A DNA stretch of 64,000 nt from a virus. The notes under the pieces are model-generated. The model was not told the DNA's origin. It did no database searches and worked only from the letters and a program-made list of their open reading frames with translations. The stretch covers positions 23,893 to 87,892 of the IMG/VR virus record IMGVR_UViG_3300029319_000017. One strand, 5' to 3'. A program made the translations under genes and the position numbers. This document shows positions 18,714 to 50,479 of this stretch, one piece after another. Within the stretch, counting starts at the first letter, position 1, and each line of letters opens with the position of its first letter.

Positions 18714-21700
18714 GTCTGTGGAATTTACGAGCACCCACTTCCGTGGAGTACAAATTTACTAAAAAACTATTAATATTACTAGTGATTAGTCTTATTGCTA
18801 GCCATTTATCTATCATTTTTCTAGGTCTAAATCTACCATCTGTTACTTTACTGGCTAGTGAACTGCCATTAAATGTTTCATGCATATCAGAAACTATAAA
18901 TAAAGGTAACTGATTTGGAGGTATAGAAGTAAGAGATTGTTGCCCATTTATCATAACTGCATTAATTTCAGTTTCTACTTCAACTCCATCTGTATTTACA
19001 GCAACTTCACCTACTTGTGAACTATTTGGTATAGGCAAGAAAGATAGCATATATAAGTTATCTAGATCTGGAATAGTTAAATTATTTACTGCACTATGAT
19101 TTGTAAAATCTCTAAATTTATTTATGCACCATTCACATCCATTCTTTCTTGCATTTAACATTTCTGTTATATTTTGTAATCCAGAACTTTGATGAGAATT
19201 GTATACAACAAATCTGTCAAATCCTGGACCGTGTGTTTTTGTTAATAATAAATTATCTTGTTGGTCCATATCTGGAATACGGTTATCACTACCTCCCATT
19301 ACACCGCATAACGGACATCCACCATAATCAATTTCAGAATCTATAGCTTGGCTAATTCTGTCAGATATCCAACAGAAGTTATAAAATAATTTATTAGTAA
19401 ATTTATTTTGATTATGTATTATTTCTAATTCTGATGTGTATCTTCTACCATAATACCATCCTTTTTGTCCTACATAATTATGTTTATAAATTCTATCTCC
19501 TATATTTAATCTAGAAGTAAAATGTGAAAAATTATTAAACGAGTATAAAGCATTAGATGTGTATGTATATTGATATGGTACATAGTCATGAAATGATATC
19601 CACGCTGATAATTTTGGAGAATATGAAGCAGTCCATCCATCTCTTTGGAAATAAGTCTCTTTGTTTCCTGGAGATAGTTTTGTTCCCATATAAGGATCAT
19701 CACTTACAGGTAAAATTTGCCAAGGCACTTCTTCAATTTCATCTGTAGTAAGAAGATTACCGTTATCATCAGTAGTTACATCAGGAAGTTTTATAAGAAA
19801 TTGATCTTCTGCATTTTCTACACCGTATAGATTGGAATTAGAAGGAGAATATGTTATCATACCTACAGGATCTGCAACATTTTGATCTATAAAGTTTTGC
19901 CAAGCTTGTAAAAATAGACTGTTTGGAACAAGTTCTCTTTTAGTTAATAGTATTCTTTGATATACTTCATCGTATGCACTTGTAAATCCAAAAGTTATTG
20001 GATTATCTGGGTAATTAACTTTACCAAATACTTTTAATTTATATGGTAAATTAGTTTGAAACCATTTTTCTAAACCCATAGATGATATGTCATATAACTG
20101 ATCTGAAAATAAATGTACAGATGCATTTCTTTGATCTACATAAAAATAACCAAAGTCTCCTACAAGTGTAGCAAATTGAGATTGTGTTCCACCATACCCT
20201 GCTTCTGTCTGTCTTATTTCTTCTGGCGGCTGTGCAAATAAATCACCGCTGCCTATAAATGCTTGTGATGCATCTCCTAACTCCATAGTCTGCTTACCCT
20301 TAGTTCTTAATATACTATCTTCCATATGGAAATATAGTAAGTTATTAAATGTAGCAATCTTCCATAACTCTCCTCTATTCTTTGGTAGATCTTTAAATTG
20401 TAAAGCTAAGAAAAGTCTGTAGTTATCAATTAAACTGCTATCATCTGATGTAGCGCTTCTAATAACTCTTGTTGGGAAAGAAGACGGTTGAGATATTTGT
20501 CTAGGTAAAGGTACTGTAGATCCAATACTATTAACAACAGAGTAGTCTTCATTATATTTCATGTTATCTACATCAGTACCATCTACAGTATTTTTTAATA
20601 TTAATAGATCACGTGCAGGAGTTCCTGGAAAATAAGAGTCTTTTTTACTATTTACATGTCTAAAGTTAATATTATCTGTAGATTCAACAATAGTATTATA
20701 TATTACTCTACAATCTTTTCTTCTTGTAGAATCAAATCTGCCTGGATCTGCAGGAAATTCATCTATATGAAAATTACTTCTAAGTGTTTTTCTATATCCA
20801 TGTCTACATATAAATGTATCCCCTCCAAATATATGTCCTGTTCTAAAATTATCTAGTGCTGGTTGTGCAGCTACTTTTATGTAGTCGTCAATACTCATAG
20901 CATTATAATTAGGCCATCCATCTGGGTAAACTCCGTCTATTATTGGTGGATTTGTTTGTCTGTTTAATACTACTGGATTAGGACCTTGAACTGCAAATGT
21001 AGGATGCAACCCATTATCTATTGCGGCTTGAAAACTCATTGTAGATAAATTATCTGTTTCAACAGTAATTCTTGGATTACCTACTCTATCAACTTTAAAA
21101 AAGTCATAGTCTTTTCCTGTTACTTCATACCCTGTCCATACAAGATCTTGTTGATCAAACGGACTGTACATGTCTAGCCTAAATGCATGCATATTAGCTT
21201 GGTACATAAATGGTTGAAATCCAGATTTACCTATCTGCGCTTCAAACATAGCGTCTGCTGGAGGATCTGTTTTTATCCATGGTAATGTACCAGGTAAATC
21301 AAATGCAGGTAATGTACCATATTTTTCATTTAATAATAATGATATATGACTTTCTCCATAATTATTCCAAGTCCTACGTCCAAATCCTAATTGTTTACCG
21401 TTAAATATACTATCTCCGTTAAGGTATGTTTTACTTCTTTCTTTAATAGGCCTATTTAAATCTACATGAGTTCCTTGTGATGATAACCATTGATATAAAT
21501 TTTCTGTGCCTGTACCACCATTAAATATTCCTAAAGCAGGATCTTGTGCCTCTGAAGGACTGTAAAAATTAAAAGCTGTATGAAGTCCTGTTATTACCTG
21601 GTTACTACTTGAATAACAAGTTTCAGATCCAGACTCTTGTCTTATAGAAGGTCCGCTAAATGCAATCATTTCTACAATATAATCTAGTTTTAAATGTGTA

Positions 21701-24700
21701 GCTGCTGTAATACTTCTTCTAGCTCCTCCACTATCACCCTGCCCATGACCACGCATTAAATAAAAATCATGAAAACTAATACCTTGATATCCAAATTCCA
21801 TACCTGCATCTGTAGGGTTTGGTAATGGATATCCTTCTTTTTCTACTTGATGTGGATAGTTTAACCAATAAAAGTTTTTATTATTTTCAAAAACAGAATC
21901 TAATGAATAAGAACTATCAGATATTGTTTCAGTAACATCACCACCACCACTATTTTCACATGAAGGGCGCATAGCCTCATCTACTGTTGCATAAGGATTT
22001 ACAATGTTTTGCCCTAGAATTCTTCTTTCATGATGATCTCTATCTGCATAATAAATTCTAAATCCTTGTGTTCTTTCATGTATATGTAAAGGTACTTTTA
22101 AATCTTCAAATTGTATACCTAATGCTCTTACATAATGTCCTATAGATCCTCCATCTACTGCAGAAGTATCTTGAGATTTCCAGTGTACCCACCCACGGCA
22201 ATCAGCAGCACGAAATGGAAAAAGTCCACTAGCGTTAATTGCAGTAGAACCCTCTGCTCCTTTTTTATTTGCTTTAGCTATAATAACTCCTTTTGCTTTA
22301 TCTACAAATACAACTGTTAGCTTACTTGAACTAATTGCATTTTGAAAATCAGCAGTACCCCAACCACCATCTTGTTCAATATTATCATCATCTACACTAT
22401 CTCCCATAGCACCACTATGAGTATCCCATGTCCAAACACCTTTTCCTTTCTTTTCTATACACCCTGTAGATAAATGCACTGTACCTCCTTTATCTCTACA
22501 ATCTCCTGGATTTGCAATTCCATCGTTACTACTTGGTCTAGAACTTTTAAAAAGATATTCATCTGTACCATATGTATTTAACGTATTACCCTCAAGACCT
22601 GCAGACCCATCCATTAAAAATCCATTGCTAGCATATGGGCTATCACCTGAATCTGTACTATTTTGACTAGCATAAGATCCAATTTTTCCACCATCACGAG
22701 CCCCATGATTTTGCCAAGCCATAGATATTTTATCTCCCATTTGTGGAAACTCATAACTATTATCATTTAATTCGTAGAACATAAATAATTGATTTTTATT
22801 ATCTACATTACCCATAACATTATGTATTTTAGCATCCTCACCATCAGGGTTAGTAGAATCACTATAAAGACCAGTTTGTAATCCAAGTATTGTAGCAACC
22901 TCTACAAGATTATCATTGTTCATGTCATTATTACTAGGGTCATCATTACCTTGATATATTCCTAATAATTTTCCAAATATAGTTTCATTATTATCTAAAG
23001 CAGTTGTTCCAAATCCTATTGCTGGCCTTGCTACTCTGTCTGAGCACCATCTAAAGTCAATAGCATATACTTCTTTAACTTCTAAGACAACATCTATTGT
23101 AGACGTATTATCTACAATAGTTTGATATGTAGGATTTTCATTAGATGGAAAATGATGATGTCTTACACGTCTACCTGCAATACTACCTTCTCGTCTATCA
23201 GGATTACTTGCATCTAGTATTTCCCAGTTAGATGCATTTAATTCATCACTAGGATAAAACTCATTTGTGTTTTGCCAATAGTTCATATTTCTAGAACCTA
23301 GTAACATGCTTGTTTCGAAAAAATGAAATATTCTACCTTTTTGATTAGTTATTTGGTTTAATGCATTTTCAGGATTACTAGGATAAATATCATCAGATTC
23401 AAAAGTAAAATTTATATCAAATATGTCAGTATTATACTGATAAGTAGGAACTCTATTATATTGAAAATCACCGCCTACTGATTCATCTAATCTTAGTGGT
23501 GCTCTTCCTGGTATATGATATGCATAAGACTCTGTACCATCTTCAAGTATAAATGCAATGTAAAATGCATATACTTCATCTCTAGTAAAACCTTTATATT
23601 TGTATATATTTTTATTATGCCTATATCCTTGAGATCTACTTTCTATATCTCCAGCCTGTAAATTATTAGGAAAAGTATCTATGTACCCATGTTCTAAAAC
23701 ATCAAGAGTTGCCTCATGCGGATCAAAATATGGAAATGGATGTAAAGCAGGTCTAGATTTAATAAAATTCGCATAGGGTTGATATCCTACATCCTTAGTC
23801 CCTTTTACGTTTCCTAAGTATAAACTACCATCTAATTGATTTATTGTCTTAGCGGTCTCGTATGAGGCTGTATCAACAATTACATCTTCTACACTGTCAA
23901 ATCCAGCAAAACCTTCTAAACCTGTAAATGTAACTGTTTGTAGCTCTACAGTTCCTGCTGTATTTTTTATAGGAAGATCATTTAATTTAAATGTAGTACG
24001 TTTACCATCTGCTCTTCTTATAACAACAGGTCTTAAATATTCATAGTCTGTATTTAAATTACTAACTGCCCATGAAATAGATTTACCTGATGGTACACCT
24101 GCAGGGGCTCCGTCATACCTTTCTATAGGTAATACACCCTCTACATCTTCTACAATAGATACAGGATTAGCAAGCGTTACATAATTAGTTGAAACAAGAT
24201 CTCTATCTACATATGCAAGAGCTAAAAAATATACACCTGTTTGCAAATTACCTCCTGGATTTATACTGTCAAATTCTACATGGGGTACAGGACCAGACGA
24301 TGGGAATAAATCTAACATTCTAATATGATGTGGATTACTAGTTGTTTCAGGATCTAAACCATACAATCTTTCAAAAGGAGCTGATGCACCTTCTGGATTA
24401 TCTATCCATTCTTTTTGCCTAGTAACATTCATTGCTCTAGGCGGATTTAAATTATCTACCCAATATATAAAAAGTTCACCTTCAGGATTTATTTTATAAG
24501 TTCCTTCTATAAAATTATCTCTACTAAAATTTAAATTAAAGTTTGTCCCTGTTATTGCTACTGAAACATTAACTGTGCTTATATTAGGTCTAAATAATGT
24601 AGTATAAGAATCATTTTCTAACAACCCTATTTCAGAATTGTAATCAGTTGCAAATGTATTAAAAGCTACACTTTGATCAGCATTAAGTATACCTTGTTCA

Positions 24701-24957
24701 TTTCTACGAAAAGCTAAAAATAAAATAATTCTATCATCAGTAATTTCTATTGTACCAATAACAACTGCACCTACAGGTAATACACTTTCTGCATCTTCTC
24801 CAGGTTTAACTGGTACAGTTAATGCTTTAAATGCATGCTCATTAGACAATGCTCCATCTACAGGATGTATTTGTATATTACGGGCATATCTCCACGTTCC
24901 TTCTGGCTGGTCAATATGTGCTGTATCTTTAGAAAGTCCTTTTATATACTTACCCAT
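18694..24957 (-). CDS. Tail muzzle / stabilization protein (crAss-like, P22 gp10-like), 2,087 aa
   Basis: N-terminal KGLSKD...PEGTWRYARN; YWVDNLNPPR; FTRDEVYAFYI; RVRHHHFPS; IFGGDTFI; WISFHDYVP. These motifs and the position between ring and cargo genes are typical of crAss-like muzzle proteins. Confidence 0.85.
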   Translation of the reverse strand: MGKYIKGLSKDTAHIDQPEGTWRYARNIQIHPVDGALSNEHAFKALTVPVKPGEDAESVLPVGAVVIGTIEITDDRIILFLAFRRNEQGILNADQSVAFNTFATDYNSEIGLLENDSYTTLFRPNISTVNVSVAITGTNFNLNFSRDNFIEGTYKINPEGELFIYWVDNLNPPRAMNVTRQKEWIDNPEGASAPFERLYGLDPETTSNPHHIRMLDLFPSSGPVPHVEFDSINPGGNLQTGVYFLALAYVDRDLVSTNYVTLANPVSIVEDVEGVLPIERYDGAPAGVPSGKSISWAVSNLNTDYEYLRPVVIRRADGKRTTFKLNDLPIKNTAGTVELQTVTFTGLEGFAGFDSVEDVIVDTASYETAKTINQLDGSLYLGNVKGTKDVGYQPYANFIKSRPALHPFPYFDPHEATLDVLEHGYIDTFPNNLQAGDIESRSQGYRHNKNIYKYKGFTRDEVYAFYIAFILEDGTESYAYHIPGRAPLRLDESVGGDFQYNRVPTYQYNTDIFDINFTFESDDIYPSNPENALNQITNQKGRIFHFFETSMLLGSRNMNYWQNTNEFYPSDELNASNWEILDASNPDRREGSIAGRRVRHHHFPSNENPTYQTIVDNTSTIDVVLEVKEVYAIDFRWCSDRVARPAIGFGTTALDNNETIFGKLLGIYQGNDDPSNNDMNNDNLVEVATILGLQTGLYSDSTNPDGEDAKIHNVMGNVDNKNQLFMFYELNDNSYEFPQMGDKISMAWQNHGARDGGKIGSYASQNSTDSGDSPYASNGFLMDGSAGLEGNTLNTYGTDEYLFKSSRPSSNDGIANPGDCRDKGGTVHLSTGCIEKKGKGVWTWDTHSGAMGDSVDDDNIEQDGGWGTADFQNAISSSKLTVVFVDKAKGVIIAKANKKGAEGSTAINASGLFPFRAADCRGWVHWKSQDTSAVDGGSIGHYVRALGIQFEDLKVPLHIHERTQGFRIYYADRDHHERRILGQNIVNPYATVDEAMRPSCENSGGGDVTETISDSSYSLDSVFENNKNFYWLNYPHQVEKEGYPLPNPTDAGMEFGYQGISFHDFYLMRGHGQGDSGGARRSITAATHLKLDYIVEMIAFSGPSIRQESGSETCYSSSNQVITGLHTAFNFYSPSEAQDPALGIFNGGTGTENLYQWLSSQGTHVDLNRPIKERSKTYLNGDSIFNGKQLGFGRRTWNNYGESHISLLLNEKYGTLPAFDLPGTLPWIKTDPPADAMFEAQIGKSGFQPFMYQANMHAFRLDMYSPFDQQDLVWTGYEVTGKDYDFFKVDRVGNPRITVETDNLSTMSFQAAIDNGLHPTFAVQGPNPVVLNRQTNPPIIDGVYPDGWPNYNAMSIDDYIKVAAQPALDNFRTGHIFGGDTFICRHGYRKTLRSNFHIDEFPADPGRFDSTRRKDCRVIYNTIVESTDNINFRHVNSKKDSYFPGTPARDLLILKNTVDGTDVDNMKYNEDYSVVNSIGSTVPLPRQISQPSSFPTRVIRSATSDDSSLIDNYRLFLALQFKDLPKNRGELWKIATFNNLLYFHMEDSILRTKGKQTMELGDASQAFIGSGDLFAQPPEEIRQTEAGYGGTQSQFATLVGDFGYFYVDQRNASVHLFSDQLYDISSMGLEKWFQTNLPYKLKVFGKVNYPDNPITFGFTSAYDEVYQRILLTKRELVPNSLFLQAWQNFIDQNVADPVGMITYSPSNSNLYGVENAEDQFLIKLPDVTTDDNGNLLTTDEIEEVPWQILPVSDDPYMGTKLSPGNKETYFQRDGWTASYSPKLSAWISFHDYVPYQYTYTSNALYSFNNFSHFTSRLNIGDRIYKHNYVGQKGWYYGRRYTSELEIIHNQNKFTNKLFYNFCWISDRISQAIDSEIDYGGCPLCGVMGGSDNRIPDMDQQDNLLLTKTHGPGFDRFVVYNSHQSSGLQNITEMLNARKNGCEWCINKFRDFTNHSAVNNLTIPDLDNLYMLSFLPIPNSSQVGEVAVNTDGVEVETEINAVMINGQQSLTSIPPNQLPLFIVSDMHETFNGSSLASKVTDGRFRPRKMIDKWLAIRLITSNINSFLVNLYSTEVGARKFHRHEKRQN

Positions 24958-25916
24958 TACATTGATCTATTTAAATTTTCTTTAGTATTCATTTCTTCAA
25001 AAAATAAACTATGCGCATTAACATCAGGAACCATTCTTACCCATTGATCCATAAAGCTTTGCATTTTATCAATATCTGGGAAGTTAGCATTTGCTCTAGC
25101 CTGTGAACAATACTTCATCCATTTTTGATCTGCATAGTTATAGTCTATTTTATTATTAGGTTTGTCATATCCTCCTAATAATAATTGTTTAAATATGTAC
25201 CAAAACATAGCTTCTTTATAACTAATGTCATCTGGTACAAGAGGAAAGCAATCCTCATCTACAGGAAAAGCTGTATATGATAAACATACCTGTCCTGATG
25301 CAAAAGATGTTTTTATATAATTGTAATCTATTATATAAGAATCTTTTGCATTTGATACTTCATTAACACAGTCTACACAATGTATAGACTCTGGAAAAGT
25401 ACTAGCCCCATAACATAATGGTACTAAACTAGCACTTGTTCCATCGATCTTGTTGTTAAAAAACATCCCCTCTAAAACAATAATCCTACTGTTAATTTCA
25501 TTTAACTCTAGCACATTGCTTTTATATTGTGTATCATATGTCGTTAGATCTGCATTAGTTACATTAGATGCGTTGTCTAATAGATCTGATTCTAGTGTTT
25601 GGTTATATTCTTGTACAACTGATTTTAGCTCATTTACTTTTGTAGTAAGCGTTTCTAACTCAGCAGCAATAGATGGCTTTACTAAGTTATTTACTGCAAC
25701 TTGATTAATATAATATAGATCGCTAGGTAGCAATGCTTTATTATCTTTAATGTGTAATACAGTCTTTTTTGTAACTAGTTGAGCAGCAGAGCCTATATGC
25801 TCTAATGCTTCACCTATCCACTCTATTGCGTCATCTACCCAATTATCATCATTAGGTTTTAAATCACGCATTACTTTTCTAATAATACCTTTACTTGATG
25901 TGTGTCTGTAAATCAT
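24957..25916 (-). CDS. Tail ring / tail tubular protein
   Basis: DAIEWIGEALEHIG, IKTSF..G.VCLSY.AFPVDEDCFPLVPD, W.KYCSQA; adjacent to the muzzle gene as in crAss-like tail modules. Confidence 0.75.
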   Translation of the reverse strand: MIYRHTSSKGIIRKVMRDLKPNDDNWVDDAIEWIGEALEHIGSAAQLVTKKTVLHIKDNKALLPSDLYYINQVAVNNLVKPSIAAELETLTTKVNELKSVVQEYNQTLESDLLDNASNVTNADLTTYDTQYKSNVLELNEINSRIIVLEGMFFNNKIDGTSASLVPLCYGASTFPESIHCVDCVNEVSNAKDSYIIDYNYIKTSFASGQVCLSYTAFPVDEDCFPLVPDDISYKEAMFWYIFKQLLLGGYDKPNNKIDYNYADQKWMKYCSQARANANFPDIDKMQSFMDQWVRMVPDVNAHSLFFEEMNTKENLNRSM

Positions 25917-26361: not shown

Positions 26362-26831
26362 TATTTTTTAAATTTTAAATATGCTAAGTCATCTGTTTTT
26401 AATAGATTAATTAGCTTTTCTTTATTTCCTTTCAAACCTCTAGTAGGAGTAAATCTATAAGCAGACTTATTTGGTATGCGGCATTTACCTTTGTTCCAAT
26501 AATATCTGCAGTAAAATTTATCAGTATAGTATATATACCATTTTACTCCTTTTTCTGTGTGTTTACTATATAATGTTTTACCATTTTCTAGTAACTCTTT
26601 TTTATATTTATTGCTTTCTCCCCAGTCTATTCTAGGAGATCTAGGATCTCTTTCTGTCCTTCTTATAGATAACGTAGATAAATTGTTACCCATGTTAAAT
26701 GTTCCTCCTTCTAATATATCTTCTACAGTTTTTATATTAAAATCTGAACATATAGCTTTAAATATAGTTTTATCTATATTTTCATTTGTATTGCAGTAAT
26801 CATTATATATATCTTCTAATGTATAACTCAT
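26361..26831 (-). CDS. IHF/HU-like DNA-binding protein of the crAss-like tail module
   Basis: Helical N-terminus then ILEGGTFNMGNNLSTLSIRR...IDWGES...YRFTPTR, the pattern of crAss-like IHF homologs; synteny. Confidence 0.65.
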   Translation of the reverse strand: MSYTLEDIYNDYCNTNENIDKTIFKAICSDFNIKTVEDILEGGTFNMGNNLSTLSIRRTERDPRSPRIDWGESNKYKKELLENGKTLYSKHTEKGVKWYIYYTDKFYCRYYWNKGKCRIPNKSAYRFTPTRGLKGNKEKLINLLKTDDLAYLKFKK

Positions 26832-27526
26832 TACTCTTTTTTACCAGGAGATGGTAAACCTCCTTTTATATCTTGTTCTTGATCAGCTAATGTATCACTC
26901 ATTGTTCCTAACAACAATTGCAATTCTCCACTTGCCATACCTGCTGTAATAGCTTGTAACATATCTGCAGGTATTGGAAAAGGTTTGCTGTCATCCCAAC
27001 ATGTACCGTTTTCACATTGGTAATGTTTAAGATCTTCAGGGTTTTCAAACACCCCCCTTACATTTACAAACTTTAATCCATTTGCATTGTATACATATAA
27101 ATGATCTTCTATCATATATGCTTTATATTTAGAAGATGTATACTTATCATAAGGTAACCATTTTACCATATGATTATCTACTACAGGTATTGTTTCTATC
27201 CCTGTTATATCTCCTACATATGTTAATGCTTCTTTAAAATTAAATCGCACAGTTCTAGGTACTTTCTTTTTAGTTCTAGATACAGAACATGTAGTAGGTA
27301 AATCACAGCATTTAGATGGATTTACTTCTTCTAGTTCTAAACATCCTAGATCTTGTTCTAAATGTCGTGTAACTACACCATTTCTAGCAAAGTCTCTACG
27401 AATCATCATAGCTCTATAATGCTTAATATTAAATTTAATTTGATCCAAGGAGATATGCTCACTTTGATTAGGCCTACCTCCCCTGACCAAATTTAAGATA
27501 TTATATGCGATTTCGTTTAATGTCAT
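26831..27526 (-). CDS. Tail ring/adaptor protein
   Basis: MTLNEIAYNIL...SLDQIKF.I..YRA, QDLGCLEL, V.VRGVFENP, FPIPADM; synteny with the tail module. Confidence 0.7.
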   Translation of the reverse strand: MTLNEIAYNILNLVRGGRPNQSEHISLDQIKFNIKHYRAMMIRRDFARNGVVTRHLEQDLGCLELEEVNPSKCCDLPTTCSVSRTKKKVPRTVRFNFKEALTYVGDITGIETIPVVDNHMVKWLPYDKYTSSKYKAYMIEDHLYVYNANGLKFVNVRGVFENPEDLKHYQCENGTCWDDSKPFPIPADMLQAITAGMASGELQLLLGTMSDTLADQEQDIKGGLPSPGKKE

Positions 27527-29315: not shown

Positions 29316-29924
29316 CTATATATTTAAGTCCTTACTTTCTAATAACGTATAGGTAAAACTATTACCCCAAGTATCTCTAGCTACTCTACATATATCCATA
29401 AACTCGTGCCAATCATCATTAGCTGCAATTACTTGACAGCCTGCTGACCATTTATCTACTTGTTTAGATTTTTTTCCTCCCCATTTAGTAGCTCTATGTA
29501 TATTAATACCAAACAAACCTGTTTGTGTATTATCATCACTTAGATCATACTTGTCGTCTTTATTAGCATCTCTATATACTGTTACAGGTCTACATTGACC
29601 TAATGCTTCATATCTACCTTGATGTAATCTTATTTTATGAGAACCTCTGTACTGCCCTTCTTTTAAAACAGCAACACCTTCTTTTCTCATAATGTTTTCA
29701 ACCCAGTATCGTCCTGGATCTGTTGTACAATCGTAAACATAAAACTCCCATTGGCCATCACATTTAAATGATAATGTAATTTTATCATCAAATTTATTTG
29801 TAATTTCTGTACCTGTATTAGAGTTTCTAATTCCTACAATGTTAAGGTTGTAGTCTCCTTTTTCAAACCAGTTATAGCTCTTCGCCTTAACTGCTTTTTC
29901 TATTATCTCTCTAGTTAAATCCAT
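29316..29924 (-). CDS. Putative endolysin, YkuD/L,D-transpeptidase-like fold
   Basis: LNIVGIR...FDD...TTDPG...GINIHRA...WSAGCQV (His...Ser-x-Gly-Cys catalytic pattern); next to the holin. Confidence 0.75.
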   Translation of the reverse strand: MDLTREIIEKAVKAKSYNWFEKGDYNLNIVGIRNSNTGTEITNKFDDKITLSFKCDGQWEFYVYDCTTDPGRYWVENIMRKEGVAVLKEGQYRGSHKIRLHQGRYEALGQCRPVTVYRDANKDDKYDLSDDNTQTGLFGINIHRATKWGGKKSKQVDKWSAGCQVIAANDDWHEFMDICRVARDTWGNSFTYTLLESKDLNI

Positions 29925-30332: not shown

Positions 30333-30713
30333 TTAATTAAATTGTTTTAATATTATTTCGTCCACCTTTGCCTGGACGTCTTTTTTATCTGCCTCTAATT
30401 GAAACATAATGTTTGCATTAAAAGTTTCTTCTACATTACCATTATTAAATATAATAACTGTAGGTATAGAAGTAATTTCAAACTCCTGTTGTAGGTCCAT
30501 ATGTGTTCCTATATCAACTCTATAAACTTCACATTCTTTTAAATTTGGTAACCATTTTACAGAATTTGCATCATTCCAACTTGCCCAAAACTCTACAACA
30601 ATTATTCCTCTGCTTACTTCTTTATCAAAATTGTCTGGTCCTAAATAAGATTGTCCTTGTGCAAATCCAAAAGAGGTTAATAAAAAAACTATATAGGTTA
30701 TAAATTTTTTCAT
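30333..30713 (-). CDS. Exported thioredoxin-fold protein lacking the CxxC motif
   Basis: Signal peptide MKKFITYIVFLLTSFGFA-Q; NFDKEV..GIIVVEFWASWN...VDI....LQQEFEITSIPTVIIFNNG follows the thioredoxin pattern, with WN in place of WCxxC. Confidence 0.8.
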   Translation of the reverse strand: MKKFITYIVFLLTSFGFAQGQSYLGPDNFDKEVSRGIIVVEFWASWNDANSVKWLPNLKECEVYRVDIGTHMDLQQEFEITSIPTVIIFNNGNVEETFNANIMFQLEADKKDVQAKVDEIILKQFN

Positions 30714-31060
30714 TTTTTAAGGGTTTTAATTTCTTCTTTTAATTCTTCTAAATCTTTGATCACACGATCAATTTTTTGACGCGCCATCTCATCTTTCATA
30801 TTAAACTCCATACGAGTTGGTGGCCATGTTTGTGTAGCTGCAGGATCTCCCATATCTATCATGTATGTTCCTGTTCCTGGTTTGGGTAATTCTAAGGCTT
30901 GTTCAACCTTACCTTCAAGTTCTACAAATTTAGAATTTATAGTACTCATTAACCCAAAATATGCAGAGATTATAGTAGCTACACCGACTACAATCCCTAT
31001 TAATGTTTTTATACTTATTTGAAATTTACTGTCTTCTGATATTTCTTTGTTCATTTTCAT
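30710..31060 (-). CDS. Single-pass membrane protein with coiled-coil C-terminal region
   Basis: TM segment LIGIVVGVATIISAYFGL; coiled-coil tail; 4-nt overlap with the thioredoxin-like gene. Confidence 0.65.
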   Translation of the reverse strand: MKMNKEISEDSKFQISIKTLIGIVVGVATIISAYFGLMSTINSKFVELEGKVEQALELPKPGTGTYMIDMGDPAATQTWPPTRMEFNMKDEMARQKIDRVIKDLEELKEEIKTLKK

Positions 31061-31481
31061 TATAATTTTTAACGCAAAATATTGCTGTTACATCTGCTGT
31101 ATGACCAGCATCTCCTAAATTTAATTTTAAATTATTAACAGTATCTAAGTCAAAAGGTATACCATCATTAAAATCTAAAGTTGTTCCTTGTTTAATTGTT
31201 AAACCTTTTAATAGATAATATTCATTTGTTTCATCGTCTAACCACAAATTAACTGTTATATCAGTACTATCTGTGTTGCATATAAACAATCTTTTTAGTT
31301 GTATAAAAGGACGTTGATATAAAAAATGATCAGAATCACTGCCTCTTTGAAATCTTTCTCCGTCATCGCTTGCTTTACCATAAAACAAAATTTTTTCAGC
31401 TGTACCAGAACTAGTTATACTAATAAATTCACTATATAAATAATCATTAGGACCATTTTCTGTTACTGTAATATAATTCAT
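31026..31481 (-). CDS. Hypothetical structural (beta-sandwich-like) protein
   Basis: LFICNTDSTDITVNLWL...YYLLKGLTIKQGTTL; in operon. Confidence 0.55.
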   Translation of the reverse strand: MNYITVTENGPNDYLYSEFISITSSGTAEKILFYGKASDDGERFQRGSDSDHFLYQRPFIQLKRLFICNTDSTDITVNLWLDDETNEYYLLKGLTIKQGTTLDFNDGIPFDLDTVNNLKLNLGDAGHTADVTAIFCVKNYNENEQRNIRRQ

Positions 31482-31482
31482 A

Positions 31483-31857
31483 TTATGACAATGTTAATCT
31501 TATTGATTTAGTTTGGCTTCCAACTTTTCCTCCAAAATTTCTAGTCGCTATCATGTCAATAGTATATCTTGTTACTCCTTTAACTGTTGTTGCTGTTAAA
31601 TCACCAAATGATAAAGTAGTGTTAGATCCAATAACTGTTTTATTATCTTTATTAGATTCTATCTCTGTTCTAAGATAATCTAACTCATCCTGCATTAATC
31701 CTATTTGATGAATTAAAGATGTAATAAATGGGTTTGCTCCTTCAGGATCATTAATATTTATATCTAAAAATCCTTGATCATGAACAGTCTTTAATTTAGC
31801 TTTATCAGAACCTGTCTTATTATGTATCCTCTCGTATGCTTTATTTGTCAATCCCAT
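31483..31857 (-). CDS. Hypothetical protein
   Basis: ORF tightly packed in the late operon; short coiled-coil. Confidence 0.6.
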   Translation of the reverse strand: MGLTNKAYERIHNKTGSDKAKLKTVHDQGFLDININDPEGANPFITSLIHQIGLMQDELDYLRTEIESNKDNKTVIGSNTTLSFGDLTATTVKGVTRYTIDMIATRNFGGKVGSQTKSIRLTLS

Positions 31858-31867
31858 ATTATTTATT

Positions 31868-32746
31868 TTAAGATGTTATTTCAATTTCTGCATTAGCCCA
31901 ACCATATAATGTAGAAGAACTACCACTTGTTCTTCTAACACATAAAGTTAAACCTTGACCTGCTGTTAACGTATTACCACCAGTTACCGTAAAAATTTTC
32001 ATATAGTTTGTATTAGCTGTATAACTACCATCACAATCTGTTGCTGTCATAGTTGCTAAAGTTACGTTAGCAGTTGAATCATGTACTATAGGAACTTTTA
32101 CTACTTCCCACTCTAAATCTGCAGTTACAGTTTGATACCAAGCTACACTAATTTTATGTACAGTGCAATTTTGCGTTGCTATAAACGAGCACATTCTTAT
32201 AGCAGTAGAATCTGCTATAGACAAACCATCTAAAGAAGAAGTACTTATACTTTGACCATACATTGCAACATGATACCATCTGTTTACACTTGAGACTAAT
32301 GCCAAATAAAAATCATCTCCTTTTAATTTAACAAGAGATCTTGCTGTATTAGTTAAAGCAAATGTGCCAGTAGAATCAGGTAATGTTAATGTGCTACCAG
32401 TAATAGATGATGGAGCTACTATTCTTATTGAATCTGTCCCATTATCTGTATCTTCATAAAAATATAATTGTGCTGCACTAGAACTTGTACCACCTATATC
32501 TAATCTTCCATTTGATATATTTACTTTTGGAGTACCAAATAAATCTAAAGCACCAGCAGATGCTATACCCAGATCTGATACAACATTTACCATACTAGAT
32601 ACATTGTTAATAGTATTAGAAGTAATAGTTACAGTTTCAACATCTATTTGATTTGCACCTCCATATGTTAAAATACCATTAGCTGTAGACCCGTTAACTG
32701 TTAACGATTCTTCTTCTGGCCCTATAACTCTTCCTGGTTTACTCAT
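31868..32746 (-). CDS. Putative tail/head fibre protein
   Basis: S/T/G-rich; FYEDTDNG...APSSIT...TLTLPDSTGT fibre-type motif; beta-rich C-terminal domain. Confidence 0.6.
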   Translation of the reverse strand: MSKPGRVIGPEEESLTVNGSTANGILTYGGANQIDVETVTITSNTINNVSSMVNVVSDLGIASAGALDLFGTPKVNISNGRLDIGGTSSSAAQLYFYEDTDNGTDSIRIVAPSSITGSTLTLPDSTGTFALTNTARSLVKLKGDDFYLALVSSVNRWYHVAMYGQSISTSSLDGLSIADSTAIRMCSFIATQNCTVHKISVAWYQTVTADLEWEVVKVPIVHDSTANVTLATMTATDCDGSYTANTNYMKIFTVTGGNTLTAGQGLTLCVRRTSGSSSTLYGWANAEIEITS

Positions 32747-32958
32747 TATTTTTTTGCAAATTTTTCTACTCCACTAATACCAAAACATCCTAATACAACC
32801 CATACAAATGAGTCGTATACAAATTTATTAATAACTAAATCAGCTCCTACTGCTCCAGTTACTAAATCTATAATCATAACTACAACCATTATAAGAAATG
32901 CTACAAATCCAATTATAGATTTTTCATTCCAATCATTATTATCTTTAAATATCTTCAT
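32746..32958 (-). CDS. Small two-TM membrane protein (holin-like)
   Basis: Two hydrophobic helices; C-terminal LGCFGISGVEKFAKK. Confidence 0.6.
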   Translation of the reverse strand: MKIFKDNNDWNEKSIIGFVAFLIMVVVMIIDLVTGAVGADLVINKFVYDSFVWVVLGCFGISGVEKFAKK

Positions 32959-33299
32959 ATGTTTATTGTAATTGTTAATCCACCTTCCATATTTTTAAAA
33001 CTCCATTTAGCTTTTATACACATGCCTTCAACACAAAAACCCATGCTAGGCGGATGAGTGCATCTACAGCTTCCAAAGTTTTTTCTATCTTCTTCACCGT
33101 TTACTAAATATTCAGCTTTATCTAAAATATTTTTTAGTTCTTTAGCTAAAGTCCCATTACTTTTACTACTACCCTTATGCCTTCTAATAAGTGTTCCAAG
33201 TTTCTTTGATACTGCAACTAAATTATCTGCAGTAACTTCAAAAGTTTGCAAAGTCTTAGAAGGCAAAGGGTTTGTAGTTATAGTAATAGGTCTAGGCAT
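32955..33299 (-). CDS. Hypothetical protein with C-terminal Cys cluster
   Basis: SCRCTH...FCVEGMC; in operon. Confidence 0.55.
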   Translation of the reverse strand: MPRPITITTNPLPSKTLQTFEVTADNLVAVSKKLGTLIRRHKGSSKSNGTLAKELKNILDKAEYLVNGEEDRKNFGSCRCTHPPSMGFCVEGMCIKAKWSFKNMEGGLTITINI

Positions 33300-33300
33300 A

Positions 33301-33648
33301 TTATAAGTCTAAAAAGTCTTGATAAGAATATGATGCATTATTAGACCCACCATTTTTATACATTTTCTTTTTACCTCCCATTTTAAATCCAGGTCCCATT
33401 TTTTTCTTATTTATTGGGCTATTTTTAACCCTTGTTGTTTTCTTTCTTCCTTCAGCGGGCACATTCGCAACAGTTCCACTATCTTTCGATTGCATTTTTT
33501 TCTTTAAGTCATCTGCTGTAACTGTTGAATAAGTTTTTCTTTTTTCAGTTAAATCAAGTGCTTTTTTTCTAAACTTAAATGTTTCTTTTCCTTTAGCCCT
33601 AGCTTTTTTAAATTTTTTTTCAAACCTAGATAATTTTCGTTTTGTCAT
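33301..33648 (-). CDS. Small basic protein ending in tag GGSNNASYSYQDFLDL
   Basis: FEKKFKKARAKGKETFKF basic domain; FKMGG and YKNGG motifs; C-terminal 16 aa identical to the neighbouring gene. Confidence 0.75.
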   Translation of the reverse strand: MTKRKLSRFEKKFKKARAKGKETFKFRKKALDLTEKRKTYSTVTADDLKKKMQSKDSGTVANVPAEGRKKTTRVKNSPINKKKMGPGFKMGGKKKMYKNGGSNNASYSYQDFLDL

Positions 33649-33677
33649 GATTATTTTATTTTAAATTATATTTATAT

Positions 33678-33974
33678 TTACAAATCTAAAAAATCTTGGT
33701 AACTATAAGAAGCATTATTAGATCCACCTTCTCTATATTTGCTATAGCTTATATTTCTTTCTTTTCTGTCTTTTTTTGTTGTCTTTATATTACCACCTTT
33801 AGGCAATACTGTTTTCTTTCCAGTTTTTCGTTTACCCATACCTGCTAATTTTCCACTAGCATCTCTTCTTACTGTTTTCTTTATTGTTCCGTCTTTGTTA
33901 TATTTTACTTTTATTTGACCACCGTCACTAGTTTTTGCCTTTTTAACTCTTTTTCGAGTACTAATATCTTTCAT
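33678..33974 (-). CDS. Small basic protein ending in tag GGSNNASYSYQDFLDL
   Basis: K/R-rich; YREGG then the same C-terminal tag. Confidence 0.75.
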   Translation of the reverse strand: MKDISTRKRVKKAKTSDGGQIKVKYNKDGTIKKTVRRDASGKLAGMGKRKTGKKTVLPKGGNIKTTKKDRKERNISYSKYREGGSNNASYSYQDFLDL

Positions 33975-33984
33975 AATTTTAATT

Positions 33985-34695
33985 TTAATTTAATTTATAT
34001 TTAATTTTACCATCTTCTATATACAAACCTTCACGCTCTTTTATAGCCTGTCCGTTTAAATTATATAGTATATTGTTGGTTTTAGATTTATTTATTAATT
34101 CATTTATAGACGAGTTACAAGGTTGTCCTGTATCACAATCTATGTATTCTGTAACATATTCTATAAACTCTACATATTCTATTTCTACAATTGTATCGTA
34201 AACAAATACGTCAACATATTCAATAACATCTACAAAAAGAGTATCTAAAACGTCTTCGTAAATGGTTACTGTATCTGTTATATAAATGTATTCTGGAACA
34301 AACACTTCTACTTCTACAGTGTCTATTACAATGTTGTATACATATTCTGTATTAACTATAGTATCAAATATTGTTTCATATATAGTCTCATATTCTATTT
34401 CATATATTGTATCACACTCTTCCCCAATAGGAGGTAAACAATCTAATGGTGATGTTGGTTCTGCGTTATCTTCATCAGAAGCATCTACACAATCTTCCCA
34501 CCCATCATTAAGATAAAATAAATCAGGACCATTAGGTACGCATCCATTAGGAGAATACTGTGTCCAATTTGCTGGATCATCACCGCAATAAAATCCATTT
34601 TGTTGTGCGCATTCTAAACATAGTTGTTGAAAGTCAAATTGCGAGTAAGCAAACGAGCTTACAAACGCAAATAATATTATAAATAATTTTTTCAT
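33985..34695 (-). CDS. Exported protein: LDL-receptor class A-like Cys motif, acidic DT[IV] repeats, T9SS-CTD-like C-terminus
   Basis: Signal MKKLFIILFAFVSSFAYS-Q; FYC...GCVP...NDGWEDCVDASDE; repeats DTIYE/DTIV/DTVEV/DTVTI/DTLF; tail SSINEL...ILYNLNGQ.I...GLYIEDGKIKYKLN. Confidence 0.7.
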   Translation of the reverse strand: MKKLFIILFAFVSSFAYSQFDFQQLCLECAQQNGFYCGDDPANWTQYSPNGCVPNGPDLFYLNDGWEDCVDASDEDNAEPTSPLDCLPPIGEECDTIYEIEYETIYETIFDTIVNTEYVYNIVIDTVEVEVFVPEYIYITDTVTIYEDVLDTLFVDVIEYVDVFVYDTIVEIEYVEFIEYVTEYIDCDTGQPCNSSINELINKSKTNNILYNLNGQAIKEREGLYIEDGKIKYKLN

Positions 34696-34697
34696 AA

Positions 34698-35750
34698 TTA
34701 AAAGAATAAATAGTTAAATCCAAATTTTACTTCATATACTGGTTTTTCCCAGTATTTTATATGTGTTCCCTCTATAAATAATCCTAGGTTTTTTGTTATT
34801 CTTTGTCCAAATACCATTCCTGCATCCCATTCTAACCAATCTAGATCTGATTTACCGTAATCAAATGAATAATCATCTAAGCCGTAATGATACGGTAAGC
34901 AATTAACCCAAGCATGTAACCAAAACTTAGGTGTATATTTATAATATGCAATTCCTACTACTGCACTTAATTCTTTTTGTATTCCTAATTTTTCTAATTC
35001 TCTTTCATTAAATCTTGCAACTGCATCCCCAAAGTGGTGGTTAAAGAACTCATCATTACTAGTTGCTACAAGAATAGAATCACCTCCTGATACATCATAC
35101 CAGTTATTATTAACATAGAAGCCTTGGATCCATTGTTCAGGGGCATATCCAAAATCTTCAGCTAATTGTTGGAAGGTTGATTCGCCTGGTACCCAAAAAT
35201 CCCTGATTGGTACAAAGCCATAAGCAGGATGAGCTCTAACCACTGCTCCTACTGTAAAGTCCCAGTTTCCTGAGTTTATTCTATATCTTGTGTCAAAAGA
35301 TGTATATTGCAAGTTTACTCTTTGATTATCTTTGTATTGGACTTTAGTGACGCATTTTTCACCCAAGTATCTAATCCAAAAATTTTGATCAGTAAACTTT
35401 TCACCACGATTACGTATAAAAGAATAATTAAACAAATACTCCCAACCATTAGAATTACCAATAGTAACGTTGTCTGCCACAGCTCTTTCAGTACCATAAT
35501 ACCATGTTTTAACTTTGTATTCATAATCAAATCTGGCTATCTTACGAATACCTATTGTTAAATTGTAATCGTAAGGATTAATTTCTGTTATATCTACATA
35601 TCCTTTATCTATTGCTCTGTAATCTTCTCTTTCAGAAAAAGAAGTATTTGTACTTACAGATGTATAAAATGTAGAGTATTTAAAAAAGTTTTTTATTTGT
35701 GCATTTCCTACTGCACACATTAATATAAGTAAAATTATTATATTTTTCAT
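34698..35750 (-). CDS. Putative outer-membrane beta-barrel protein
   Basis: Signal MKNIIILLILMCAVGNA-Q; aromatic-rich alternating strands (YNLTIGIRK, WEYLFNYSF, WDFTVGAV, LGLFIEG); C-terminal YEVKFGFNYLFF resembles a BAM beta-signal. Confidence 0.75.
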   Translation of the reverse strand: MKNIIILLILMCAVGNAQIKNFFKYSTFYTSVSTNTSFSEREDYRAIDKGYVDITEINPYDYNLTIGIRKIARFDYEYKVKTWYYGTERAVADNVTIGNSNGWEYLFNYSFIRNRGEKFTDQNFWIRYLGEKCVTKVQYKDNQRVNLQYTSFDTRYRINSGNWDFTVGAVVRAHPAYGFVPIRDFWVPGESTFQQLAEDFGYAPEQWIQGFYVNNNWYDVSGGDSILVATSNDEFFNHHFGDAVARFNERELEKLGIQKELSAVVGIAYYKYTPKFWLHAWVNCLPYHYGLDDYSFDYGKSDLDWLEWDAGMVFGQRITKNLGLFIEGTHIKYWEKPVYEVKFGFNYLFF

Positions 35751-44787: not shown

Positions 44788-46029
44788 TTATTCCATTTTC
44801 TGCACTTCACTACTGTGAGTTGCATACCTTGGATCGGAAATAGCCTCCAAGATACTTGCCACTGCTAGTTTTACAATTTCCTCATGAGTGTGTTCTGGAA
44901 GATCACAACTACTATTAGTTGGTAAATTGACCACAGCAGGGCGTCTTATATATGTTAACCTAATCTTATCTACAATAAATAAATCATCGGTGTAAACATC
45001 TATGTTATTTCCTCTCATCACAGTTAGAGGGGAACTGTATTTTGTTTTGTTAAAAGGATCGTTTATCATTGAATGTATATCATCATGTTGAACCATTCTA
45101 CATGAATGCGATTCTCTTACATAAGAAGCCCAAGTATCACTTGTTGGAATTCTTTTTTGATTTAGTACATCATCCTTAAATAATAAAGGTGTTTGTACTG
45201 TTATAATATTATCAGCCTGTCTACCAGCTAAAAAAGTAACATTACCTAAAGATCCATCCCAATTTATCCAATCAAATGCTTCTTGATCTATTACAGCTAT
45301 AAAACTACCAGGATAAGATATTTGTGATCCGCCTATTGGCCAGTTTTCCCAAAATATATCTCCTAATGCCCAGTTATCTAAAATGTCTTGTATCAATCCT
45401 GATGATACATCTTCTCCATTTCCTGGCCCAGTATTTGGAAAAACATCTGGATCATTATCTATAGTAAACTGCAAAGATCCATCCATATTACCCCATGACC
45501 ATGCATTTTCTATTATGCTAGTAGCAGGAGCTCCTATTTCACTAAACATTTGTATTTGACTTAACCAAGATGTACTATTACCAGCTTGGTTTTGACCTAC
45601 AAAGTCATTTAAGTTAAATATAAAATAAAAAATAGAATCCTGATCTGTTAGATTAAATCCTATTGGTTCACATGTAGGCAATCTTTTAATTTCTGTATTA
45701 ATATTGATTAAATACATGTAGTCAGTGGGTAAAAATACTGTATCAGTAAATAAAGACCCACCTGGTTGAGCTGAACTTTTTAATTGTTCTTTAAATGATG
45801 CTTCAAGAACGACTTCTCTTACTAACGTTCTTAGATCATCTCTTCTTTTTTGTGACTCCTCAAAACCTTTTCTGTAAAAGTTATTTTGTTGGAATCTTGT
45901 TGTAACAAATTGTTGTATAGCTTTGTTCAACTCTCGATCTAATTCTGAAGTAAGTAATGAATCAGCAACTTGGGCATGGATTTTGTCCACGCCCTGTTGT
46001 ACTGATAAGTGCATTTCTTGTATATCCAT
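44788..46029 (-). CDS. Tail ring / head-tail adaptor protein
   Basis: GFEESQKRRDDLRTLV, LPTDYMY, LTYIRRP, CDLPEHTHEEIVKLAV: crAss-like ring protein pattern. Confidence 0.75.
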   Translation of the reverse strand: MDIQEMHLSVQQGVDKIHAQVADSLLTSELDRELNKAIQQFVTTRFQQNNFYRKGFEESQKRRDDLRTLVREVVLEASFKEQLKSSAQPGGSLFTDTVFLPTDYMYLININTEIKRLPTCEPIGFNLTDQDSIFYFIFNLNDFVGQNQAGNSTSWLSQIQMFSEIGAPATSIIENAWSWGNMDGSLQFTIDNDPDVFPNTGPGNGEDVSSGLIQDILDNWALGDIFWENWPIGGSQISYPGSFIAVIDQEAFDWINWDGSLGNVTFLAGRQADNIITVQTPLLFKDDVLNQKRIPTSDTWASYVRESHSCRMVQHDDIHSMINDPFNKTKYSSPLTVMRGNNIDVYTDDLFIVDKIRLTYIRRPAVVNLPTNSSCDLPEHTHEEIVKLAVASILEAISDPRYATHSSEVQKME

Positions 46030-49729: not shown

Positions 49730-50479
49730 TTATTTTTTATTAAAGTCTTTTAACTTTTCTAAATCCCATTTATACCCACCTTTTTTTCTAAGATAGTCTT
49801 TAATGTAGTTATCAGCGTAATTATTATCTAATCTATATCCACCTTTTTGTTTTGTACCACCTAAAGTTTTAGCATATTTAGCAGCGGCATCTCTATCAGT
49901 CCCAAAATGTATTACTTCTCCTCTACGTTCAGCTTCTGCAGCTACTGATCTCCAATCTTTATTAGCTTGTTCAGATCTATCATCCCAACTTCCATCCTCA
50001 TTTTGAAATAATGTGGGAAAAGCAAACCAATTTATTCCATCTGCAGTTTCATGTCTCATTATATGAGTTGAGTAAGAACCATCCTCATTATCTCTTTTTC
50101 CTGTTCTTTCTGGAAGTTTAAATCCACCTTCTTGATACTGACTAGGATTTTCTAATACTGTTTCTACTCTTTCTCCTGTAGGCATACTTCCTGCAGTTTC
50201 TGATTGATAGCTTTGCACTAATTCTTGTGATGGTGCAGCGTTTGCTTGTTCAATTGCTTCTTGGTTTCTCATTTCCATAGGAGGCATGTCTGTTCCTAAT
50301 GATACTTTTGCAGGTGAGTTTGCAGGTACATCCATTGGATTTATATCCATAGGTTCTAACTCAGGATCTGTACCTGGTTCAGGATCATTTTGTTGAAATA
50401 ATTCTGTAAAAGATCCTTTGTAGCCTGTTGCATAGGCTTCTTTCATTAGTTGTATTTTTTGATCATTAGTTAGAGCCAT
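49730..50479 (-). CDS. Hypothetical modular protein with xxxGG-delimited segments
   Basis: P/E-rich N-terminus, YQEGG, a central YSTHIM...FPTLFQ..DGSW domain, then KTLGG, KQKGG, RKKGG. Confidence 0.7.
   Translation of the reverse strand: MALTNDQKIQLMKEAYATGYKGSFTELFQQNDPEPGTDPELEPMDINPMDVPANSPAKVSLGTDMPPMEMRNQEAIEQANAAPSQELVQSYQSETAGSMPTGERVETVLENPSQYQEGGFKLPERTGKRDNEDGSYSTHIMRHETADGINWFAFPTLFQNEDGSWDDRSEQANKDWRSVAAEAERRGEVIHFGTDRDAAAKYAKTLGGTKQKGGYRLDNNYADNYIKDYLRKKGGYKWDLEKLKDFNKK

Follow-up and report, generated by a model that had tools for sequence, protein, structure and literature searches.

A short C-terminal tail on small polycationic proteins of marine crAss-like phages

Two polycationic proteins with one C-terminal tail

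The 64,000-nucleotide stretch of viral DNA analysed here (hereafter the window; positions 23,893 to 87,892 of the IMG/VR record IMGVR_UViG_3300029319_000017) belongs to a marine crAss-like phage, as judged from family matches of proteins encoded on its minus strand. Two small, strongly polycationic proteins of 115 and 98 amino acids (aa), hereafter p115 and p98, are encoded on the same strand, and both open reading frames (ORFs) were found exactly where a first-pass annotation of the sequence had placed them (Table 1). As reported there, the final 16 residues of the two proteins, GGSNNASYSYQDFLDL, are identical and are preceded by YKN in p115 and by YRE in p98. Outside this tail the two proteins do not align: a BLASTP comparison matched only residues 97–115 of p115 with residues 80–98 of p98 (17 of 19 identical). 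Their description as unrelated proteins holds in this sense but goes too far: p115 and p98 are members of a single mosaic family of lysine-rich proteins, and some of their modules recur in its other members. The N-terminal part of p98 consists of hairpin-like modules of the form K-x-K-Y-x-K-D-G-T-x-K-K, and its relatives P0002–P0004 are 47–57% identical to it. Among the 1051 stop-to-stop frames of at least 30 aa in the complete 87,892-bp genome, only p115 and p98 end in DFLDL.

Neither protein could be assigned to a known family. PHROGs yielded no family for p98 or p115 at the threshold used, Pfam gave none for p115, and the only Pfam match of p98 was a chance-level one to PSII_BNR (E-value of 0.029, 14 bits compared with a cut-off of 27). 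The region 32900–34100 had no blastn match, and p98 no tblastn match, among GenBank phages; none of the 39 pattern matches of p115 in IMG/VR was confirmed, and no RNA dataset is listed among those that contain the stretch. Atlas models of p115 and p98 have mean predicted local distance difference test (pLDDT) values of 0.41 and 0.42, respectively, with weak MORN/RHS-like structural neighbours for the p98 model and feature matches for both proteins of at most 0.89, to unnamed viral clusters.

The two copies of the tail have diverged at the DNA level but not at the protein level. They differ in 8 of 16 codons and at 9 nucleotides, including TCT versus AGT for a serine, with no amino-acid change. 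When either 9 random substitutions or one substitution in each of 8 codons were introduced, in 200,000 trials each, the peptide stayed unchanged in none of the trials under either null. The core of the tail, YSYQDFLDL, was found in 11 distinct DNA versions that use 2–4 codons at seven of the nine positions, in a search whose pattern fixed the peptide. Among the variants listed from environmental contigs, whose counts rest on the best-supported rows of the variant table, all four that fall in the tag (three in p115 and one in p98) are synonymous, compared with only two of the eight that fall in the N-terminal parts (bodies) of the two genes, the other six being replacements. Contigs that bridge p115 and p98 came from four runs in four studies, one of which may be the window's own source sample, and carry 0, 5, 1 and 21+10 differences. 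Purifying selection thus acts on the tail, which behaves as a module, and the N-terminal parts are relaxed. The first-pass view that the tag is maintained at the protein level and is not a fresh duplication is thus borne out, both by the 9 synonymous differences in 48 nucleotides and by the occurrence of the tail on 21 distinct proteins.

Carriers of the tail and the tails of other lineages

A DNA pattern covering the last nine codons and the stop codon located the tail in three IMG/VR contigs and six metagenome contigs, and a word-based protein search added four more carrier proteins. A profile of the last 35 residues, in which the tail was not fixed, was compared with 1.84 billion protein representatives and retrieved 11 proteins, all of them basic and 48–123 aa long, 10 with the exact core YSYQDFLDL and one with ASYKDFLDL; no long protein and no cellular protein with the tail was found among these representatives. 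The word search for longer carriers produced 86 candidates, none of which was scored, and is weak evidence on this point.

In all, we found 21 distinct carriers, spread over at least nine contigs, with lengths of 48–123 aa and net charges of +5 to +25; 20 of them have the core YSYQDFLDL and one has ASYKDFLDL. The GG pair that opens the tag lies 9–14 residues from the C-terminus, after a body of 37–107 residues, and is separated from the core by a spacer of five residues in 18 carriers, four residues in one and none in two, drawn from S, A, T, N, G, D and E. From the GG pair on, the tag contains no lysine or arginine in any of the 21 carriers. The residues ahead of it are YRE in 13 carriers, YKN in one, KRK in five and KKN in two, so the proposal that the tag starts at a Y-x-x-GG site applies to 14 of the 21 carriers and fails for the other seven. 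There is thus a true 16-residue unit, but its boundary is not fixed at Y-x-x-GG.

The architecture of the carriers is modular. Their bodies are mosaics that combine a MYGKMNKMNTMKKGG-type start, the K-x-K-Y-x-K-D-G-T-x-K-K hairpin-like units seen in p98, an Ala/Lys helix, Y-x-P-Q-[ST]-Q-[KR] units and the motif KKKMYREGG. Untagged polycations contain some of these modules as well; one example is the 85-aa protein of the window, which has a MYGKKKMMKKGG-type module in common with tagged relatives; the KKMYGG motif that makes up most of a much larger protein described below is seen in this protein in miniature. The locus itself turns over: in another contig with a near-identical neighbourhood, p115 and p98 are replaced by a single 118-aa gene that has a different body and keeps the tail. 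A search of related genomes for the tag on varied N-terminal parts, the check proposed in the first-pass annotation, came out in its favour with 21 carriers of mosaic, replaceable bodies; in addition, the locus is hyperplastic, like the internal-protein loci of phage T4. The idea of a diverse cargo needs to be narrowed, as the bodies are indeed diverse but all carriers are small polycations rather than arbitrary proteins.

Searches through conserved neighbours, namely the 114-aa four-cysteine protein (six loci) and the 70-aa protein with two transmembrane (TM) segments (278 loci, of which the best 80 were kept), revealed two further classes of tails on small basic proteins. In lineage B, the tail ends in GPNxxL, usually after GG-[QSAV]-VQGCGCPYGM-x-[MI], and was found on 13 distinct carriers, including four basic proteins of the 115-kb genome G004. 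In lineage C, the GG pair is followed by 2–10 residues and then by Q-[HYK]-[DN]; the 63-kb genome G007 encodes five carriers, four of which end in Q-[HY]-[DN] whereas one is a variant that ends in YQKD. Not all tails of classes B and C are free of K and R. Of the 80 loci, 22 have a tagged gene in the 3 kb upstream of the two-TM gene (class A, that of the window, in three, class B in 15 and class C in four), and tail classes were mixed in none of these 22. The number of tagged genes ranges from one to five per genome. The general pattern is that each lineage has one short, extreme C-terminal tail that stands behind a GG pair on several different small polycations. Such lineage specificity of the tails fits with a co-evolving phage partner.

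The bodies cross the borders between lineages. The lineage C tail is found on a 109-aa body in G007 that ends in SLRKWNC, like the 146-aa DUF6321 protein of the window (a comparison of the endings only), and also on a body of the WPSAYASG type, while DUF6321-like and WPSAYASG-type bodies occur untagged in lineage B, where the 88-aa one in G004 is assigned to DUF6321 by Pfam. Among the lineage-B carriers and their neighbours, this untagged protein was the only one to reach a Pfam cut-off; five other matches were at chance level (E-values of 0.04–0.09, below the cut-offs). Homologues of the DUF6321 type were found in 517 GenBank phage records, mostly of cyanophages and pelagiphages, at 44–74% identity; we found no paper on DUF6321. 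We conclude from this spread that the basic bodies are generic tools of marine phages and that the tails are their lineage-specific part.

Two further proteins of G004 deserve mention. A 240-aa protein (L024:15194-15916), which adjoins a holin-like gene, consists mostly of KKMYGG-type repeats, with MYGG present at least six times. One of the lineage-B tagged proteins (L024:14063-14437) contains the sequence QLDLF, 8 residues ahead of its GG-tail; it fits the consensus of clamp-binding motifs and may be there by chance.

Genome context of the tagged genes

The phage qualifies as a member of the Crassvirales by its crass-type major capsid protein (MCP), ring and muzzle proteins (Table 1). Its MCP is at most 32% identical to those of GenBank phages but has 779 relatives among metagenome proteins at E ≤ 1e-10, the best 120 of which are 77–97% identical to it, and the stretch itself is present in marine or seawater metagenomes of nine studies. 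The muzzle gene is followed by cargo-sized ORFs of 1157, 696 and 4786 aa. The 1157-aa protein (15240-18713, minus strand) has a glycine-zipper match at residues 195–228 (E-value of 4.5e-4, below the cut-off), and this match and its position after the muzzle gene are reminiscent of the TM-bearing cargo protein C1 (gp45) of crAss001. A 249-aa gene at the usual position of a protease gene has no family match and no catalytic motif that we could see, its products vary from 154 to 386 aa in relatives, and it was rejected as a protease candidate.

Table 1. Positions in the window of the genes and sequence elements considered in this work
Feature	Position	Strand	Remarks
p115, tagged polycationic protein, 115 aa	33301-33648	-	35 K+R, 10 D+E, net +25
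p115 tag	33304-33351	-	GG 33346-33351; spacer SNNAS 33331-33345; core YSYQDFLDL 33304-33330
p98, tagged polycationic protein, 98 aa	33678-33974	-	net +20
p98 tag	33681-33728	-	GG 33723-33728; spacer SNNAS 33708-33722; core YSYQDFLDL 33681-33707
Two-TM protein, 70 aa	32746-32958	-	one edge of the variable island
Four-Cys protein, 114 aa	32955-33299	-	no Pfam family
Acidic secreted protein with T9SS-like tail, 236 aa	33985-34695	-	named from sequence features; other edge of the island
Outer-membrane-barrel-like protein, 350 aa	34698-35750	-	named from sequence features; other edge of the island
Untagged polycation, 85 aa	28677-28934	-	net +20; directly downstream of the holin-like gene
Untagged polycation, DUF6321, 146 aa	25921-26361	-	Pfam E 7e-17; between the ring-2 and ring-1 genes
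Putative scaffold, acidic, 382 aa	48486-49634	-	between portal and MCP; no family match
C-terminal tail of the putative scaffold, DVDIDDLDLNLF	48489-48524	-	possible tie to the tag
Muzzle	18694-24957	-	crAss_MUZ, E 3.1e-43
Ring 1	24957-25916	-	CrAss_Ring_1, E 2.8e-56
Ring 2	26831-27526	-	CrAss_Ring_2, E 4.6e-41
Ring 3/4	44788-46029	-	Ring_3_4, E 2.9e-6
MCP	47003-48457	-	Crass_capsid, Pfam E 1.6e-78
Portal	50466-52799	-	family match
Large terminase	52894-54858	-	family match

The island that holds the tagged genes is bounded by proteins that appear to belong to the cell envelope. The barrel-like protein and the protein with a tail resembling those of the type IX secretion system (T9SS) have no match in Pfam or NCBIfam, and the two-TM protein is strongly conserved among very different marine phages. 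The cassette of these three genes is found in phages whose MCP is 85%, 33–34% or 29% identical to that of the window or is undetectable, and often includes proteins with an N-terminal TM segment and coiled coil, thioredoxin-like proteins and SNase-like proteins. In the cassettes (window 30333-35750 and 32746-32958; loci L029, L033, L034, L076 and L096), the barrel-like protein ends in an aromatic residue; the thioredoxin-like protein lacks CxxC and matches the NCBIfam thioredoxin model with an E-value of 7e-10, below the cut-off. In Bacteroidota hosts, this envelope cassette may serve for lysis or for remodelling of the cell surface. In all six loci found with the 114-aa four-Cys protein, a tagged gene lies immediately upstream of its gene. 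Both this protein and the two-TM protein were considered as receptors of the tail and rejected, as their conserved parts remain the same across lineages while the tails differ.

The holin-like gene of the window matches Pfam GTA_holin_3TM with an E-value of 5e-5, just below the cut-off. Upstream of it, a 202-aa protein (29316-29924, minus strand) contains an H...S-x-G-C motif that we take to be of the kind found in L,D-transpeptidase-type catalytic domains; although it has no Pfam or NCBIfam match, this protein is a candidate for an unusual endolysin.

Two observations concern the genome as a whole. A direct repeat of 2.9 kb, 79% identical, is found at the two ends of the 87,892-bp contig (window 61063-64000; genome 3-2946), which could be a diverged terminal duplication or an artefact of an assembly in which a related strain was used to close the circle. 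On the plus strand, some 16 kb ahead of the window, the genome encodes a radical-SAM protein with a CxxxCxxC motif (genome 6986-7897; locus L121:87-998) that matches the NCBIfam model TIGR03886, 'spore photoproduct lyase family protein', with an E-value of 1.8e-93 and 313 bits compared with an equivalog cut-off of 437. The lesion targeted by enzymes of this type is typical of dehydrated, protein-bound DNA, and a phage-borne lyase of this kind could be linked to densely packed, polycation-bound DNA in the capsid.

Possible roles of the tail

Our preferred explanation, which we hold only tentatively, is that the tail acts as a docking peptide. It would take polycations that bind nucleic acids to a phage partner specific to the lineage, which is probably part of the procapsid or virion. 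p98 and p115 would then belong to a family of marine crAss-like phage proteins that are small, disordered and strongly polycationic, each consisting of a replaceable lysine-rich body, a GG hinge, a five-residue spacer and the invariant YSYQDFLDL at the free carboxyl end. The peptide would serve as a short linear docking motif that takes all carriers to one binding site, located on a phage-encoded partner. This partner would differ from one lineage to another, as other lineages put other tails on the same kinds of bodies, and co-evolution of the partner with the lineage would point to a protein of the phage and not to a universal hub of the host. Our best guess is that it is a component of the procapsid or virion and that the particle takes up the polycations as internal, DNA-neutralising or co-ejected proteins, for which cleavage at the GG pair would not be required. 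The tagged genes belong to the virion gene block of the late strand; the DUF6321 protein, a further small polycation, is likewise encoded among virion genes. This late-strand position, and the precedents of T4, of crassvirus cargo and of the 80alpha scaffold and CpmB, are our reasons for placing the partner in the procapsid or virion; binding itself, the identity of the partner and packaging are inferred.

The tail would be a C-terminal functional analogue of T4's capsid targeting sequence and of encapsulin cargo-loading peptides, which appear to be the known elements closest to it in function; it is a member of neither group, since its position, its sequence, the type of cargo and the lack of a protease set it apart. 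In T4, the signal lies at the N-terminus, where the prohead protease removes it, and its binding site is on the scaffolding core. The peptide described here is extreme C-terminal and unrelated in sequence. The detachment of the tag proposed in the first-pass annotation is left without support; scans of a subset of the ORFs, 34 distinct window proteins with Pfam and 20 with PHROGs, gave no match to a protease family. In encapsulin systems, unrelated proteins are docked inside a shell of the HK97 fold by a short peptide at their C-terminus, which follows a flexible linker rich in Gly. An extreme C-terminal peptide behind such a linker is also what we see here, with GG and a five-residue spacer of small residues in 18 of the 21 carriers; encapsulin cargo, however, comprises enzymes or ferritin-like proteins rather than polycations, and the peptide sequences are unrelated. 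As described for T4, the targeting sequence is the sole conserved feature of the internal proteins, and IPI-III are diverse, dispensable, small basic proteins with a short conserved address peptide and a locus that turns over fast (PMC3012670), which is much like the situation here, where the core is identical in 20 of the 21 carriers of varied body. The account of the crAss001 virion reports about 5.5 MDa of stored cargo protein and leaves a 14-residue helix bound to the muzzle unassigned (PMC10172136). The cargo proteins C1 and C2 of crAss001 come from the same virus order as the window, but the known cargo measures 60–277 kDa and no common tag has been described for it.

A link to the putative scaffold, for which the model is all-helical but of poor quality (mean pLDDT of 49.9), would support a destination in the procapsid. 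Its C-terminus does end in DIDDLDLNLF, as the first-pass annotation had pointed out, and its relatives end in DVDIDDLNLDLF and VDIEDLDLNIF. When the tail core was scored against the final 14 residues of every ORF of at least 60 aa, the scaffold tail ranked first among the 81 ORFs outside the family. The likeness may be real, in which case it would resemble that of the 80alpha scaffold and SaPI1 CpmB, which are described as having a common C-terminal helix-and-hook of 16–21 residues that binds the same site of the capsid protein (PMC5644958). There, however, the RIIK motif is clearly common to both proteins, whereas here only a D-x-L-D-L pattern is, at different distances from the end and not above background. 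A complex prediction for the MCP (36-row alignment) with the last 35 residues of p98 gave 0.01 compared with a mark of 0.32 in a run without controls, and was not used.

Several observations weigh against a virion destination. The score of the scaffold tail is barely over background (17, with the next ORFs at 16, 16 and 15). In G004 and G007, the ten ORFs that score best against the genome's own tail do not include the scaffold candidate, so that the proposed likeness is marginal and is not seen in the two other lineages. None of the large cargo-like proteins (4786, 2087, 1157, 696 and 1666 aa) ends in the tail, which means that the tail is not a general packaging signal. Bodies of the DUF6321 type occur in phages with unrelated capsids and hosts (the 517 records mentioned above) and are thus not capsid-specific. 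The tagged genes of the window stand between the barrel/T9SS-tail pair and the genes for the 114-aa and two-TM proteins. In G006, whose MCP is 85% identical to that of the window, the T9SS-tail gene abuts the two-TM gene with nothing between them, and no match to the tail profile was found in its 67 kb (a record that is 78% complete), so the tagged genes are accessory and occupy a variable island; in 58 of the 80 two-TM loci, no tagged gene was found within 3 kb upstream. Finally, three tagged genes follow a holin-like gene in G007, large KKMYGG-repeat polycations flank the holin-like gene in G004, and in the Flavobacterium myophage immuto a homologue of the two-TM gene lies directly upstream of genes annotated by the depositors as endolysin and holin.

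These neighbourhoods also provide the case for the main rival, a role in lysis or at the envelope, which we regard as unlikely. The polycations would come into play when the holin triggers or later, for example by destabilising the outer membrane in the way of a disruptin or by binding nucleic acid that has been set free, and the tail would dock them to a component of the lysis machinery or envelope or hold them inactive until lysis. In addition to the arrangements in immuto, G007 and G004, the tagged genes of at least 11 of the 22 tagged two-TM loci lie directly upstream of the two-TM gene, and the 85-aa untagged polycation of the window comes directly after its holin-like gene. There is also a known case of a small cationic protein encoded with phage lysis genes, the 56-aa gp28 of phiKT, which is reported to replace spanins (10.1101/515445). 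That peptide is an amphipathic helix, however, whereas p98 and p115 are low in hydrophobic residues, largely disordered and end in a conserved tail: with net charges of +20 and +25, respectively, they contain only 16–19% large hydrophobic residues (16% in p98), and the maximum hydrophobic moment over 18 residues is 0.30 in p98 and reaches 0.51 in p115 only in an N-terminal segment. Neither protein has a signal peptide or a TM segment. A role in lysis gives no reason for an invariant, lineage-specific C-terminal peptide, and the candidate partner, the two-TM protein, is 80–99% identical across lineages with different tails. The position of the DUF6321 polycation between the ring-2 and ring-1 genes further argues against a purely lytic function.

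Mimicry of a host motif appears improbable. The tail would imitate a peptide that binds the sliding clamp, one of the type found at the SSB tail or one directed at another hub, and would tether a DNA-binding polycation there to subvert the host machine. Disordered viral proteins with invariant terminal motifs are typical of motif mimicry, and beta-clamp motifs, as described in PMC4549789, are short peptides common to unrelated proteins and are frequently C-terminal. In a QLxLF-type register, position 1 of the tail is Q and position 4 is L, and one lineage-B carrier contains an internal QLDLF. Yet of the four specified positions in the consensus given in that source, Q1-L2-x-L4-F5, the QDFLD(L) of the tail fits only Q1 and L4, and the same source calls the clamp consensus universal, whereas the tails of lineages B and C are unlike it. 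Besides, none of the proteins retrieved by the profile search was cellular, and the tagged genes are on the late strand.

We give little credence to the tail as a released peptide signal. The K/R-rich bodies would in that case be protease-labile carriers, and the K/R-free tail after the GG pair would be freed at lysis as a lineage-specific code (YSYQDFLDL, GPNxxL or Q[HY]D), a signal from phage to phage that is sensed by neighbouring infected cells in an arbitrium-like manner. In favour of such a role, the peptides are short, form the extreme C-terminus, do not vary inside a lineage, differ from one lineage to the next and have one to five precursor genes per genome; the absence of K and R from all 21 class-A tags and the proximity of lysis genes would suit it too. 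No signal peptide, exporter or receptor candidate was seen, however, no lysogeny module was seen in the ORFs inspected, and the presence of K or R in some class B and C tails does not agree with it. The bodies also retain conserved modules and charge, which implies a function of their own. The double-glycine leaders of exported peptides, which are short N-terminal leaders that end in GG, precede the mature peptide and have a dedicated exporter, offer no parallel here, as the GG pair is near the C-terminus and no transporter family was found among the scanned window ORFs. A less radical form of the peptide-code idea, in which the tails would be a programmable C-terminal packaging code for crassvirus virions, one for each lineage, is more likely, though it too is held only tentatively.

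Very little credence is due to a degron, in which case a protease of the host or of the phage would recognise the tail and so control the turnover or timing of polycations that are toxic. The tail is extreme C-terminal and partly hydrophobic and its carriers are probably toxic to nucleic-acid metabolism, but it is unlike the ssrA-type endings that we know, its nine invariant residues are more than the degrons familiar to us need, and three unrelated classes of tails would have to be recognised. A functionless recent duplication or gene conversion that copied a 3' end onto the adjacent gene, suggested by the adjacency of the p115 and p98 genes, can be set aside because of the synonymous divergence of the tail (9 differences in 48 nucleotides and no replacement) and its spread over 21 distinct proteins on at least nine contigs.

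We found no description of three lineage-specific tails on common kinds of polycations in the open-access literature. The pattern is robust and unusual, and the function is what we infer for it. It occurs in an abundant, uncultured group of phages of the Bacteroidota type for which there is no genetics; the 779 MCP relatives and the presence of the stretch in marine metagenomes of nine studies testify to this abundance. If the docking explanation is true, the conserved address peptide would provide a sequence rule for finding proteins with a common destination in phages of this group. If that destination is the virion, the tail could be used to load reporters into crass-like particles and to recognise proteins that are delivered together with the DNA, whereas a role in lysis or signalling, if true, would be new biology for phages of Gram-negative Bacteroidota.

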